Origin: an uncultured Planctomycetia bacterium
Lineage (GTDB): Bacteria > Omnitrophota > Gorgyraeia > B26-G9
Direction of reading: 5' to 3'
Assembly (NCBI GenBank): GCA_964437495.1
Contig: CAYTGV010000001.1
Location: 28,552 to 92,551 of the forward strand
DNA: 64,000 bases
The notes under the pieces were generated by a model that was not told the DNA's origin, ran no database searches, and saw only the letters and a list, made by a program, of their open reading frames with translations. Each line of letters opens with the position of its first letter. Position 1 is the first letter of the stretch. The position numbers and the translations under genes are program-made. Below, piece by piece: positions 504 to 61,966 of this stretch.

Positions 504-1307
504 TTAATCTAACCATTTTCTCGGCGGCCTCCTTAAGTAACGCTCCGTAAACACCCCATCATCAATACCCAGGTCATACTCTATATTTGAAAAATCTATT
601 ACGGTTTTTGAGTTCGTCAACAAATCTTTTGCCTGAGATTTTACTACTGTAGGATGCCCCTGTATATCTTTTACCTCTAAAGCCGTTATAACCTTATATA
701 GTTTGCCTTTTTTATCATAGTACTCCGCCTTGACCGGCAGATAACTTTCTTTATTAATATAAATTTCAAAATAAGAAAATTCTACCTCATCTGCTTTCTT
801 CGGAGTATTCTTTATCTTATACATATCCCCTTCGCTTGAAACAAGCTCATGAGTATCCAATGTCAGGCCTCTGCCTGAGATATCCTCATAAACAAAATTG
901 CTTCCTACAAAACTTGACCGCTTATCACTTGCGGCAATTCTCCTTACAAGATCAAGCGCCGGCAAATACATCCATCGATCATCGTCTTTATCTATATACT
1001 TCCAAACCATGTACACCATATCTTGCACATCCACCGGTTTATTAAAATAAACATAATATTTCTGTTCCTTGCCGTCTTCAATATCAAAACGTAATATTGT
1101 AAACTCTCGAACCCTCTTTCTACCCTGATTATCTGTAATCGTCATCTTAACTTTTGCCCGTCCGTCATTACCTCCATAATAAGCAGTATTATTAGCCTTA
1201 GTTATTATCTCTTCAAGGGATTCCTCCGCAGATACTGTCCTCGTCAACCCAAGAAAAATAATCAAGCTAAAACAAATCAGCATTCCTAAAAAAATATTTT
1301 TTTTCAT
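504..1307 (-). CDS. LolA-like / outer-membrane lipoprotein-sorting-domain protein, partner of the adjacent MMPL exporter
   Basis: 267 aa with an N-terminal signal peptide (MKKNIFLGMLICFSLIIFLGLTRTVSA). Directly abuts the RND/MMPL exporter gene; this pairing is known from hopanoid-type (HpnN) MMPL loci. Confidence 0.5.
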   Translation of the reverse strand: MKKNIFLGMLICFSLIIFLGLTRTVSAEESLEEIITKANNTAYYGGNDGRAKVKMTITDNQGRKRVREFTILRFDIEDGKEQKYYVYFNKPVDVQDMVYMVWKYIDKDDDRWMYLPALDLVRRIAASDKRSSFVGSNFVYEDISGRGLTLDTHELVSSEGDMYKIKNTPKKADEVEFSYFEIYINKESYLPVKAEYYDKKGKLYKVITALEVKDIQGHPTVVKSQAKDLLTNSKTVIDFSNIEYDLGIDDGVFTERYLRRPPRKWLD

Positions 1308-3836
1308 TTACTCCTCCTTTTTATTTTCTATGAAACAGCCTGGGTATTCCGAAGCTTTAGAACAAACACCAGCCATTATACCTACAACTACAATACTTGC
1401 TATCAACGTTATACTCCATGAGATGTTTGTATAGCCACGTAGTATATATATAAGAGCCACTGATACAGCAACAGCAATAACCTGACAATATTGACAATTG
1501 CAAAGCATCTTTACCCCTTCTTTTTTTAAGATAACCTCAGGCAGCATAATCATGAGTGCCGGCAGAATAAATAATGTGGCAATACTTGAAACAAACATGA
1601 TCGTAAACATAAAAAAACCTACTGTTCGGTAAGGAATAAGCGGTGCCAGCAAAAGCGGCAGAAATCCAATAGCAATAACAAAAGCATTCCTGCTAATTGC
1701 CCGCGCAGGACCTTTAAACATCTTCTGCACAGTCTCTTGCAAGTTATTATTCTTTCCGTAAAGCACCCTTGCCCGTTCAATAAAATGGATAGCAAAATCT
1801 ATAGACAGCCCTAAGGTCAACGCGGAAAGAACAACAACCGGCATATCATAATCCTTGCCTATAAATCCCAGTAAACTGTAAATAAAAACTATAGTCAAAG
1901 TCAAGGGGATCATTGAGATCAGTCCCCGCAAAGGAGAACGGAACAAGAAAGTCATCATAAAAAACACGATAATAAAACTGCCGATAAAATTCATAAGCAT
2001 ACCAAAAACCATCTTGTTCTGCCAAACCACATTTATAAAAGTCAGCCCGGCCCAGTTATAACTAAGCTCAAAAGGCGGCTTATTTGCCTTTATAAAATCA
2101 TCTACCTGTTTAATAACCCTGCCCATATCCTTATTATCGCCGCTTTTAAGCTGAACCCAGATATTAATCTTTCCATAATCCGGAGTAGCCATATGCCAAA
2201 GATCATCCGGTTTATGAGAATTTTCATAAGATATAAGACATTGCGCAATAGCACGCTTTGTCTTAGGCATAACATTATTGGTTTTGTCTCCTCCCAGCAG
2301 CTCATAATAGACCTTCTTTACAATATCTGTCAGCGCTGTTGTTTTCCCTACATCGCCTTTCGCAAGAAGACTAGCCTGTAATTTTTCAACATACTTAAGC
2401 ATTTTGGGTTCAAGAAAAACCTCAGCCTTTTTATCTTTAGCCTCCAGAACAAGATAAGCCATATACGTACCAGCAAAATGTTTATTTAATATCCTGTCCG
2501 CTATCCTGATTGGATGATTTTTTTTGAACCAGCGCACCGGATTATCGTTAACATTAATTTTAGAAATTCCGTAGAATGAGATTATTGCCAATAAAATACT
2601 GCTTATAATTATGCCTTTATACCTTTTCAGAACAAATCTATGTATATTTTCAAGAACCTTATTCATTAAACCCTGCTGCGTGACACCATCTTTATTTTCA
2701 ATCTTGCAATTTTTAAATGATCTTTCTCTCATCAGCGCGATATAAGCCGGAATGAATGTTAAAGTCAGAAACCAGGCAATCATCACCCCAATAGAAACAA
2801 ATACTCCAAATGTCTGCACCGGAGGAATAGGTGAAAAAGACAAGGAAAAAAATCCCACTGCTGTCGTCAATGAGGTATAAAGCATGGGCGTAAACAGTTC
2901 ATTCATAACAGCGAAAATAGTGCTGCCCTTTTCTCCCGTAACCCTGTATTTATCCGAAAACTCGCTTAAAATATGGACAGAATTAAGTACGGCTATGGGC
3001 ATTAAGAAAATAGGGATCATCGAACTCATGATATGCACAGGAAACCCCAGGCCTATCAATAGTCCCATTGTCATAACAACTGTTGAAATAGCAAGAAGCA
3101 TGGGAGAGATTATTAAGGTAATACTCCGAAAGAAAAGAAACATAAGCAGAAAAATTATCAAACCAGCTAGGGGAGCGGACATGGCCATCTGTTTAAACAT
3201 TTCAACCCCAAATGTATCCTCAGCCACCGGTAAACCCGTAATATAATACTTTTCTTCCCCCTTGAACTGTTTTACAATATTATAGATATTCTGCGAAACC
3301 CTGTAGCTTATATTTTTTCGCTCTATAGGCACATAAACACATAAGGCCTTTCCATCTTCTGACACCATCGTTCCGTTGAACATAGGATTATCCAGAGCCT
3401 CATCCCTAAGAAGAAAGGCTTCTTTTTGTGTGCTCAATGGCCCTTTCATTAGCCATTCAAAGACTACCGAACCGACCATTCCCTGGCGAATATTATCCTT
3501 TGTCGACGGAGCAATTATTTCCCGCGCAATCACACCATCAATACTCTTTATGGCTTCGGTAAGTTCATATATTTTATTTAATGTCTCAACATTAAAGACC
3601 CCGTTATCGTCATGCTCATTAACTATCCCAACAACAATAAAATCATAAATAGCAAATTCTTTTTTTACTTTGTGATGAAAAACCCTGGCAAATTCAGTTT
3701 CAGAAAGCATGTTTTCCGGGTCAGTATCGACTTTTATCTTCGAAAACTGGAACAAAGCAATACCAATTAGAAATATAGTAATCGCCATGATAGTCTTCGG
3801 ACGGTTAAAAGAAAACTTAATTATATTCTTGAACAT
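1308..3836 (-). CDS. MMPL/RND-superfamily exporter (COG1033-type)
   Basis: 842 aa with two bundles of about 6 TM helices separated by large soluble loops, typical of MMPL/RND predicted exporters. Start ATG at 3836 is preceded by a G9 run in the ribosome-binding site. Confidence 0.8.
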   Translation of the reverse strand: MFKNIIKFSFNRPKTIMAITIFLIGIALFQFSKIKVDTDPENMLSETEFARVFHHKVKKEFAIYDFIVVGIVNEHDDNGVFNVETLNKIYELTEAIKSIDGVIAREIIAPSTKDNIRQGMVGSVVFEWLMKGPLSTQKEAFLLRDEALDNPMFNGTMVSEDGKALCVYVPIERKNISYRVSQNIYNIVKQFKGEEKYYITGLPVAEDTFGVEMFKQMAMSAPLAGLIIFLLMFLFFRSITLIISPMLLAISTVVMTMGLLIGLGFPVHIMSSMIPIFLMPIAVLNSVHILSEFSDKYRVTGEKGSTIFAVMNELFTPMLYTSLTTAVGFFSLSFSPIPPVQTFGVFVSIGVMIAWFLTLTFIPAYIALMRERSFKNCKIENKDGVTQQGLMNKVLENIHRFVLKRYKGIIISSILLAIISFYGISKINVNDNPVRWFKKNHPIRIADRILNKHFAGTYMAYLVLEAKDKKAEVFLEPKMLKYVEKLQASLLAKGDVGKTTALTDIVKKVYYELLGGDKTNNVMPKTKRAIAQCLISYENSHKPDDLWHMATPDYGKINIWVQLKSGDNKDMGRVIKQVDDFIKANKPPFELSYNWAGLTFINVVWQNKMVFGMLMNFIGSFIIVFFMMTFLFRSPLRGLISMIPLTLTIVFIYSLLGFIGKDYDMPVVVLSALTLGLSIDFAIHFIERARVLYGKNNNLQETVQKMFKGPARAISRNAFVIAIGFLPLLLAPLIPYRTVGFFMFTIMFVSSIATLFILPALMIMLPEVILKKEGVKMLCNCQYCQVIAVAVSVALIYILRGYTNISWSITLIASIVVVGIMAGVCSKASEYPGCFIENKKEE

Positions 3837-3841
3837 TCCTA

Positions 3842-3850
3842 CCCCCCCCC
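3842..3850 (-). repeat. Homopolymeric C9 (G9 on the coding strand) tract inside the ribosome-binding site of the MMPL exporter
   Basis: Minus strand reads AAGGGGGGGGGTAGGA-ATG. This is the only G/C homopolymer of 8 or more in a roughly 35% GC window. Confidence 0.7.
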
Positions 3851-4012
3851 TTAAAGGATTAGATGAATTTAAAAAAATGCACTGCTTTTAAACATACAAA
3901 TATATATTTATATTAATGATTTGTTTTTAAAGTAAACATACCGCTTTAACATTAAAATATTGTTTATTATTATATTATTGCGCTTCTTATTGTCAATACA
4001 ATATTATCTTGA

Positions 4013-4246
4013 TCATACCGCGATTAAACAGCTATCAATCTTCGGCTGATCAAATCCAATAATAACAGTACCATCTATATCAATTACAGACACCCCCATC
4101 TGACCAGAAAGTTTAATCATTTCCTCTGCTTTAGTTTTATCGATGGAAACATCAATTGATTAATATGCTATGCCTTTTGAAGAAAAATACTTTTTAGCCA
4201 TTGTACAGTAAAGACAAGTTGGCATTGAATAAATTTTCACCTCCAT
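4013..4246 (-). pseudogene. Glutaredoxin-like (NrdH/Grx thioredoxin-fold) gene with an in-frame TAA at 4160..4162
   Basis: A single frame reads MEVKIYSMPTCLYCTMAKKYFSSKGIAY-*-SIDVSIDKTKAEEMIKLSGQMGVSVIDIDGTVIIGFDQPKIDSCLIAV. It has the CxxC redox motif and Grx-family hallmarks (a C-terminal ...VIDIDG...GFD... block), and GGAG lies about 8 nt upstream of the ATG. Homologues usually have E or K where the stop falls. Confidence 0.55.
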
Positions 4247-4281
4247 ATATCACTCCTCTTCTAAAAGACATAAAACGAATA

Positions 4282-4764
4282 TTAATTTGTTATTTTTTTT
4301 CTAAACTCTGTCAATACTATGACATGCCTTTTTTCTTCTCTTATAATACTATCCAGCAACTCTTTCTTATCATCTAACACATATTCCTTTAATGCTGTGT
4401 AGACAAGTATTGATTCTTTTTCTATCTGTAATCCAAAATCCAAAGCCTCCAGAGTACTCGCAAACAATTCCTCTGTTTTTCTCTTTATTAACTCAGGGGT
4501 GAATATATAAGTCACAGCTATTGCTTCTAAATAAGCATCATAATCTCCCACACCAAATTCTTTAATGAAATAATCTCCAGAGCTCTCAAGCATCTTTTTA
4601 AATCTGCTTTGATGGCCTATTTCCTGCTCTTTTAAAAACTTCCAAACAGACTTTATTTTTTTGTCCTCTGCCTTTTCTTCAAGCTTAGCGTAAAGCTACT
4701 CGCCATTTTCCTCTACCTTCAAAGCAATATCAAGAATTTCCTGCGGACTCCAATTATTATTCAT
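4282..4764 (-). pseudogene. Ferritin-like / rubrerythrin-family diiron protein with an in-frame TAG at 4696..4698
   Basis: A single frame reads MNNNWSPQEILDIALKVEENGE-*-LYAKLEEKAEDKKIKSVWKFLKEQEIGHQSRFKKMLESSGDYF...EKRHVIVLTEF. It has two E..H diiron-type motifs. The track ORF 4282..4593 is only the part after the stop; same frame, no frameshift. Confidence 0.55.
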
Positions 4765-54432: not shown

Positions 54433-54880
54433 TTTTATCCTCTATTTTTTTAAGCATTTCATCCAAAACTAAATGTTGTATCGAATAATCCTGTTCTTGT
54501 AAGACTACCTGTCTACATATATTTTTCTCTTTATTAATCATCAGCGGTGCCAGTAAATTAGCGCTGATTTGATCTGAGCCTTGAGGCACACACACAATAA
54601 CATAACACATGCATTCCTCAATATCGCTGATCTGCAATGCTGTTTTATCCAGTAATGATACTACGGGTTTATAATCCAGTTTAACTTCCAGAGGATCCAT
54701 AATGATAAAATTTATTCCAGAGTCGCTTTGCGACTGCATCCAAAAGAAAGGCTCCTTTGATTTCTCACTCACAATTCTATACTCTTTATGTGTTTCAAAC
54801 CCGATAATCCCTTCCGGAAAAAACATTTTGCTCCCATTGAGCGATGAAGCCCGCTCTTCATGTTTAATAGTTGTTTTCAT
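54404..54880 (-). CDS. fliW: Flagellar assembly factor FliW
   Basis: [43 protein letters not shown] matches the FliW pattern; overlaps csrA as in the Bacillus-type fliW-csrA pair. Confidence 0.85.
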
Positions 54881-61378: not shown

Positions 61379-61452
61379 TGGAGCGGGAGAAGGGAATCGA
61401 ACCCTCGTAACCAGCTTGGAAGGCTAGTGTTCTACCACTGAACTACTCCCGC
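61379..61452 (-). tRNA. tRNA-Gly (anticodon UCC), CCA encoded
   Basis: Reverse complement is GCGGGAGTAGTTCAGTGGTAGAACACTAGCCTTCCAAGCTGGTTACGAGGGTTCGATTCCCTTCTCCCGCTCCA. It folds as a cloverleaf with anticodon loop CTTCCAA. Confidence 0.85.
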
Positions 61453-61719
61453 GTAATCTTTACATATCAAAAAATTCGATATTTCACAGCTTGACAAATG
61501 AGACCACAATTTACGGAGTGAAACGAACGAAAATTGTCTGGTCGAATTTGATCCCACCTACGCTTTCTTCTGTACCTTTATGGAGCTCAGCTACGGCGGG
61601 CACGCCCGCCATTTAACTGTTCATTCTTAAGGATAGCCTGCCATCTGCCACTTTGTTTCTACAAAGCAATTTTTATAGATGGCCTGCCATCCATAGCTTT
61701 GGTTTACCAAAGCGAAGGA

Positions 61720-61803
61720 TGGTGGGCAGGATAGGATTTGAACCTATGTAGGCGTCGCCGGCAGATTTACAGTCTGCTGCCATTTCCACTCGGCCACCTG
61801 CCC
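61720..61803 (-). tRNA. tRNA-Tyr (anticodon GUA), class II long variable arm, CCA encoded
   Basis: Reverse complement is GGGCAGGTGGCCGAGTGGAAATGGCAGCAGACTGTAAATCTGCCGGCGACGCCTACATAGGTTCAAATCCTATCCTGCCCACCA. Confidence 0.85.
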
Positions 61804-61891
61804 AATAAAAGTATAAAGTAAAAAGGTAAAAGTAAAAGGTTAACAATTTTGCCGCTTTTGCCTTTTTCCTTTTGCCTTTTTACTTACAAAA

Positions 61892-61966
61892 TGGAGCTGG
61901 CGAGAGGAATCGAACCCCCAACCAGCTGATTACAAATCAGCTGCTCTACCGTTGAGCCACGCCAGC
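61892..61966 (-). tRNA. tRNA-Thr (anticodon UGU), CCA encoded
   Basis: Reverse complement is GCTGGCGTGGCTCAACGGTAGAGCAGCTGATTTGTAATCAGCTGGTTGGGGGTTCGATTCCTCTCGCCAGCTCCA. Confidence 0.85.

Follow-up and report, generated by a model that had tools for sequence, protein, structure and literature searches.

Is a run of nine guanines lying directly before the start codon of an exporter gene a switch, or is it simply the site at which ribosomes bind? The question was raised by a 64-kb stretch of DNA (64,000 nucleotides, the window) from an uncultured bacterium, in which the gene for an MMPL/RND transporter is preceded by a G9 tract on the minus strand. A sequence-only reading of the window had placed the tract in the ribosome-binding site (RBS) of the exporter and had proposed a phase-variation or translational-tuning arrangement. 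Its placement was confirmed by direct reading and by the Shine-Dalgarno (SD) sequences found at the aligned position in orthologues; the phase-variation hypothesis was weakened. At a probability of roughly two in three, the tract is a G-rich but otherwise ordinary SD, specific to this lineage, which came about as the region upstream of the exporter decayed and was remodeled. The features on which this turns are:

3842..3850, minus strand: G9 homopolymer (C9 on the plus strand), from direct reading and a run census, the same in contigs L001-L004.
3841..3852, minus strand: derived SD region AAGGGGGGGGGU, putative, from alignment to the orthologues' AAAGGAGGGATAA and a pairing model.
3834..3836, minus strand: ATG start codon of the exporter gene, the first start past the upstream stop, with the encoded N-terminus conserved in 30 homologues.
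1308..3836, minus strand: MMPL/RND (HAE3-like) transporter gene, 842 amino acids (aa), intact (Pfam MMPL, 5e-34).

Across the site the plus strand reads ...CATTCCTA-CCCCCCCCC-TTAAAGG..., with C9 at 3842-3850, and the minus strand reads TTTAAGGGGGGGGGTAGGA-ATG; its ATG occupies 3836..3834, and 5 nt separate it from the end of the tract. The start codon is secure: no in-frame start exists upstream of it, and the N-terminus, MFK(K/N).I.FSF..P (M1, F2, P13 onwards), is conserved across 30 homologues. A plus-strand open reading frame (ORF) at 3709-3891, which spans the tract opposite the exporter start, had no family match and was taken as spurious.

The closest orthologues (68-78% aa identity) have a canonical AAAGGAGGGATAA-ATG where G9 lies. 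At the aligned position, AAAGGAGG(G/A)ATAA followed by ATG was found in seven close orthologues (L005, L006, L008, L009, L091, L092 and L093, with a GTG start in L092), and because this motif stands where the tract aligns, the G9 run would be the SD of the exporter gene in a derived state. The spacer is ATAA in these orthologues and TAGGA in the window. Canonical AAAGGAGG is also used by genes of the window, as are G4-G5 wobble SDs, such as the AAAGGGGGT that precedes the gene ending at 54880.

Comparison of tract length across related genomes, a check that the sequence-only reading had itself named, did not favor phase variation. Among 82 orthologous loci, drawn from metagenomes and from the genomes of species representatives, no G run in the last 30 nt ahead of the start exceeded 5, a length reached in two loci, and in four further close relatives the maximum was 4; a G run above 5 within 30 nt of the start was therefore present in 0/86 orthologous loci. 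From this comparison the tract appears lineage-specific and no conserved feature of the exporter operon. A phase-variable element might recur either by being kept in orthologues or as many tracts, and neither was seen (0/86 loci; one tract of at least 7 in 64 kb).

Pairing between the SD and the anti-SD (5′-ACCUCCUUA-3′) was modeled using ViennaRNA energies and the Salis spacing penalty. The anti-SD was assumed to be canonical, as AAAGGAGG is common upstream of the genes of the window; the window itself contains no 16S gene. The modeled values were:

G9 (window): best pairing -11.0 kcal/mol (GGGGGGGGU, 8 bp), aligned spacing 4.
Orthologues: best pairing -11.6 to -12.1 kcal/mol, aligned spacing 4.
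G8 to G14: best pairing -11.0 kcal/mol, register unchanged, aligned spacing 4.
G5 to G7: best pairing -11.2 to -11.6 kcal/mol, aligned spacing 4 to 6.
G4 or shorter: pairing clearly weaker.

In the best predicted register, GGGGGGGGU pairs with 3′-AUUCCUCCA-5′, G-U pairs included. Given the assumed anti-SD, the predicted complementarity (8 bp, -11.0 kcal/mol) lies above the minimum of 4-5 bp taken for an SD, and the aligned spacing of 4 is the same as in L005, L006, L008 and L009. With complementarity, spacing, positional homology and the SD usage of the genome all in agreement, the element would qualify as a Shine-Dalgarno site. Relative to the canonical SD (AAGGAGG with 16S 3′ CCUCCUU), the tract is alike in lying at the orthologous SD position, in being purine-rich and in its predicted 8 bp at 4-5 nt from the AUG, and differs in the change of the central A to G (a G-U wobble), in the nine-G expansion and in having several sliding registers, where orthologues have no more than G5.

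The same model bears on whether the tract could act as a switch. Changes in its length had been claimed to alter both SD strength and spacing; instead, modeled pairing and spacing were identical from G8 to G14, and G5-G7 were equally good. The predicted independence of length follows because the tract is the SD itself and its AUG-proximal edge (G-U, then AGGA, then AUG) is fixed. Local mRNA folding was predicted to shift the rate by less than 1.5-fold over G8-G14, so the alteration of expression with length that would mark a phase-variable tract was absent from the predictions. On this model the arrangement would buffer expression against length change, the reverse of what a switch does.

The tract is also, as had been stated before, the sole long G/C homopolymer of the window: the run census found no other of at least 7 in 64 kb, the next longest being C6 (10 runs) and G6 (1 run). 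The window was measured at 37.6% GC, somewhat above the 35% or so given previously, with a plus-strand composition of 22.6% C and 14.9% G. GC skew is about -0.2 in all 2-kb bins and 51 of 55 long ORFs lie on the minus strand, a very strong strand asymmetry. By analytical expectation, the number of G/C runs of at least 9 per window is 0.08 for independent, identically distributed bases and 0.21 for an order-1 Markov model, the probability of one or more being about 0.19, so that several such runs would be expected by chance in a genome of a few megabases. The G9 run is rare only modestly beyond chance. In the 20 nt upstream of starts, coding-strand G runs of at least 5 showed an enrichment of about 5-fold (4/50 versus 1.6% of the sequence), as is expected because SD motifs are G-rich seeds.

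How the tract may have arisen is suggested by the region upstream of the exporter, where the features are:

3837..3962, minus strand: AT-rich leader in place of the lost ArsR/SmtB gene, from an alignment gap and tblastn.
3969..3996, minus strand: predicted consensus sigma-70-type promoter, TTGACA-16-TATAAT (12/12), from a promoter scan.
4013..4246, minus strand: probable pseudogene of glutaredoxin-like (YruB) type, interrupted in frame by TAA at 4160-4162.
4282..4764, minus strand: probable pseudogene, rubrerythrin/ferritin-like, interrupted in frame by TAG at 4696-4698 (the His of E-x-x-H).

In orthologues the gene order is thioredoxin, rubredoxin, flavodiiron protein, rubrerythrin-like protein (160 aa), glutaredoxin-like protein (75 aa), ArsR/SmtB regulator (102 aa) and MMPL. 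In L005, L091 and L092, the closest orthologues that are intact, the regulator gene and the start of the MMPL gene share 16 nt, and an ArsR-type gene lies directly upstream of the exporter in at least 20 retrieved loci, distant ones included. When the window was searched by tblastn with the L005 ArsR protein, no ArsR/SmtB gene was found (E of at least 1 throughout the 64 kb), and the alignment has a gap of about 300 nt in the window where orthologues carry arsR (compare L005:2619-3016). The regulator gene has thus been deleted in this lineage. As arsR is fragmented or decayed in L006 and L093 and absent from L094, the regulator seems to have been lost repeatedly beside this exporter; because AAGGAG-type SDs are kept in those loci, loss of arsR alone would not suffice to produce the G run.

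The two genes that come before also bear marks of decay. The glutaredoxin-like gene has 80% aa identity to the L005 glutaredoxin over 74 aa, with its stop where orthologues have E/Q, and the rubrerythrin-like gene matches its L005 orthologue along the full 161 residues at 73% aa identity, in a single frame that the stop interrupts. Both stops are present in every retrieved contig that covers these genes, which are probably recent pseudogenes in an oxidative-stress cluster. Members of this cluster include desulfoferrodoxin, thioredoxin, rubredoxin and flavodiiron protein. The predicted promoter is conserved in the alignment of L005, L006 and L008 and precedes arsR in orthologues; it implies transcription from near 3962 and a 5′ untranslated region (5′UTR) of about 126 nt, with the tract outside any ORF and 119 nt downstream of the predicted -10 element.

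The position of the tract, its homology with the SDs of orthologues, the missing arsR and the two interrupted genes can be joined in one history, for which we infer the order of mutations, the use of the promoter and the consequences for translation. The ancestral SD would have been AAAGGAGGGATAA-ATG, inside the 3′ end of an ArsR/SmtB gene that overlapped the exporter start. In this lineage the regulator gene was deleted and the two preceding genes gained nonsense codons. G9 itself would have come from a change of A to G, which turned GGAGGG into GGGGGG, and from later expansion of the run by slippage. Since G pairs with both C and U, the run could pair with the CCUCCUU anti-SD in several registers, of which the one nearest the AUG (GGGGGGGGU, 8 bp, 4-5 nt from the AUG) would be about as strong as the ancestral SD whatever the tract length. 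The outcome would be a normal, strong RBS on mRNA that starts some 126 nt upstream, at the consensus promoter that has been kept. Although the tract is probably mutable, the gain or loss of a few G's would be buffered, without switching of expression.

Loss of a repressor beside an MMPL exporter has a parallel in Mycobacterium tuberculosis, where the MarR-family repressor Rv0678/mmpR5 adjoins mmpS5-mmpL5 and its loss is expected to derepress the exporter. In both cases the gene for a small winged-helix repressor adjoins an MMPL exporter, the regulator being of the ArsR/SmtB family here and of the MarR family there. By this analogy, the exporter of the window may have been derepressed after loss of its regulator, the one basis being that the regulator gene is deleted and the promoter kept.

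Length polymorphism was sought in public assemblies. A protein identical to the exporter is encoded on 9 public contigs, of which 4 were retrieved (two from ENA, one from JGI, 3300031645, and one from Logan, SRR8862235). The window and all 4 retrieved contigs have G9, with 100% DNA identity over 3-6.8 kb and possibly overlapping read sets; because of that identity and possible overlap, the contigs count as one population and their agreement supports invariance only weakly. At 90% identity the exporter forms a cluster of one sequence, with no near-identical strain in the protein collection. Searching JGI metagenome contigs with the variable-gap DNA pattern ATCTAATCCTTTAA-N4-18-TAGGAATGTTCAAGAA gave no matches, in a collection that does not hold this population, and scanning the JGI metagenome collection with the exporter N-terminus gave only 64-71% relatives and no near-identical strain. 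A look-up of the neighboring 103-aa ORF returned the same long contigs only. Three short contigs (ENA ERZ27317826, JGI 3300031645 and Logan SRR8862235) end exactly at window position 4275, which lies between the glutaredoxin-like and rubrerythrin-like genes; the shared end points to a graph branch or to structural variation between strains.

Among other explanations, the one proposed by the sequence-only reading, that slipped-strand mispairing in a contingency locus switches or tunes translation of the exporter operon, is unlikely, though it is the least unlikely of the rivals. A G9 run is intrinsically slippage-prone and falls within the hypermutable length range known from phase-variable bacteria (a threshold taken from other bacteria). 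The tract lies in the RBS of an envelope/export operon whose cognate regulator gene is deleted, and such a locus might stochastically substitute for the lost ArsR-type repressor. In this respect the tract resembles simple sequence repeat (SSR) contingency loci, such as the poly-G/C tracts of Campylobacter, Neisseria, Haemophilus and Helicobacter and the poly-G of the Treponema pallidum tpr promoter, in which a G/C run of slippage-prone length also stands beside an envelope or export gene. Known SSR contingency tracts, however, lie either within an ORF, so that slippage alters the reading frame, or among or close to promoter elements, whose spacing varies with tract length, whereas here some 120 nt separate the tract from the predicted promoter upstream of it, and the tract is the putative SD, with a functional edge that does not move; moreover, the organism is an uncultured environmental member of the Omnitrophota, and its retrieved assemblies are without polymorphism. 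Thus the part of the proposal that stands is that a slippage-prone tract sits in the exporter SD, while the switch itself is opposed by the fixed edge, by G9 in the window and in all 4 contigs, by SD pairing and spacing predicted to be the same from G8 to G14 and equally good at G5-G7, by the lack of such a tract in the 86 orthologous loci and by its being the only one in 64 kb. A literature search on phase-variable homopolymeric tracts in the RBS that affect spacing found nothing. In the literature search on homopolymer tracts in the RBS, the sole precedent and nearest analogue was a poly-G indel in the 5′UTR of M. tuberculosis espR, where one additional G is reported to raise translation efficiency (PMC11898584). 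The likeness lies in the poly-G within a 5′UTR; the espR tract acts via a distal hairpin and not as an SD, whereas the tract described here is the RBS, in a leader without significant structure (PMC11898584).

A second rival accepts the decay and carries it further: the tract would have come about, as a neutral or slightly deleterious change, because selection had relaxed over the whole 5′ part of the cluster, in an exporter operon heading to inactivation. Two adjacent upstream genes with nonsense codons and a deleted regulator would accord with this, but the exporter (842 aa) and the LolA-like gene that follows it are intact, with their family-invariant residues all aligned, and a consensus promoter and a strong predicted SD are kept, which makes this course improbable, and rather more so than a contingency locus. 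Occlusion of the SD by RNA structure is less probable again. The G run could pair with upstream AUCCUUU in a G-U-rich hairpin, or with downstream U/C-rich coding sequence, in the manner of a thermometer, and the minimum free energy fold of the 5′UTR plus 60 nt does contain a small hairpin, UCUAAUCCUUU/AAGGG/GGGGGGUAGGA, over part of the tract. Against this, the fold has z = +1.0, with 166 of 200 shuffles folding as well, the hairpin is missing from the centroid structure and the leader is not conserved in orthologues. An Rfam scan of the window gave no family at the locus, its only matches being 3 tRNAs elsewhere, so the stable or conserved structure or Rfam match that would mark a riboswitch or thermometer was not found. 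The sole Rfam matches, a cluster of three tRNA genes, lie at window 61382-61966 on the minus strand. Least probable of all is a sequencing or assembly artefact, such as a two-color Illumina poly-G or a homopolymer miscall. Homopolymers are error-prone, and the contigs, all 100% identical, may come from overlapping read sets; yet the tract lies within contigs as long as 147-217 kb, between flanks that are unique, different pipelines (ENA, 2 contigs; JGI; Logan) assembled it at one and the same length, and its position matches the G-rich SD of orthologues.

Several points weigh against the tract being an ordinary SD of neutral origin. The model uses spacing penalties derived from E. coli and an assumed canonical 16S 3′ end, and does not take in the kinetics of over-long SD pairing or transcriptional slippage. 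Consensus assemblies cannot show minority tract lengths. An expansion of three G's past G6 is unusual if neutral, there being no C7 or C8 run in the window, and with its dedicated repressor lost, the exporter could have come under some other form of control. It is nevertheless doubtful, and a little more so than inactivation of the operon, that the exporter operon has come to be governed, after the ArsR/SmtB deletion, by a hypermutable G tract in its SD; over-long SD pairing kinetics, transcriptional slippage or large contractions are possible routes.

The operon downstream of the tract bears on what is expressed from it. The exporter scored 118 bits against Pfam MMPL (cutoff 20.5), with ACR_tran and sterol-sensing matches too, and 214 bits (3.8e-63) against NCBIfam TIGR00921 (HAE3). 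Because the latter is below the subfamily cutoff of 352, the exporter was placed at the level of the RND superfamily only, as a predicted HAE3-like member with its subfamily left unassigned. Its homologues number more than 7000 and are overwhelmingly from metagenome-assembled genomes of Candidatus Omnitrophota; the window is therefore assigned, on homology, to an uncultured member of that phylum. A C-terminal extension of about 65 residues (window 1308-1500, minus strand), unusual for RND/MMPL proteins, carries C779, C784, C825 and C834, which are invariant in 30 homologues and lie within CNCxYC...; taken with the ArsR/SmtB regulator and the redox neighbors, this extension hints at metal or redox sensing. 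Abutting the exporter stop is:

504..1307, minus strand: LolA-like / TP_0789-like gene (Pfam LolA_like, 1e-55).

This gene has a canonical SD of its own, AAAAAGGAGGAGTAA-ATG, and its pairing with the exporter is conserved in orthologous loci; the two appear to belong to the same operon. A third gene of the exporter operon, encoding 475 aa, was seen at L001:6321-7748, just past window position 1 on the minus-strand side, followed by a gene for a YgaP-like transmembrane protein. The 475-aa protein had no Pfam or NCBIfam match and may be an uncharacterized outer-membrane partner of the MMPL/LolA-like pair.

Were the tract found to vary in length and to change expression, the known range of repeat-mediated phase variation would widen to take in the Omnitrophota and also the SD itself, at which repeat tracts are rarely documented. 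If control by the G tract is real, a candidate phylum that is uncultured and possibly host-dependent would have a contingency locus acting on translation, with genetic noise in place of a lost transcription factor. As an ordinary SD, the tract is instead a cautionary case: because every register would be open to the ribosome and the AUG-proximal edge is fixed, a homopolymer that is itself the SD would be buffered against length change, so a G tract in an RBS is not automatically a switch. The decay around it is a small, clear case of regulatory streamlining beside an MMPL exporter, with the regulator deleted, two redox genes carrying nonsense codons and the promoter kept.

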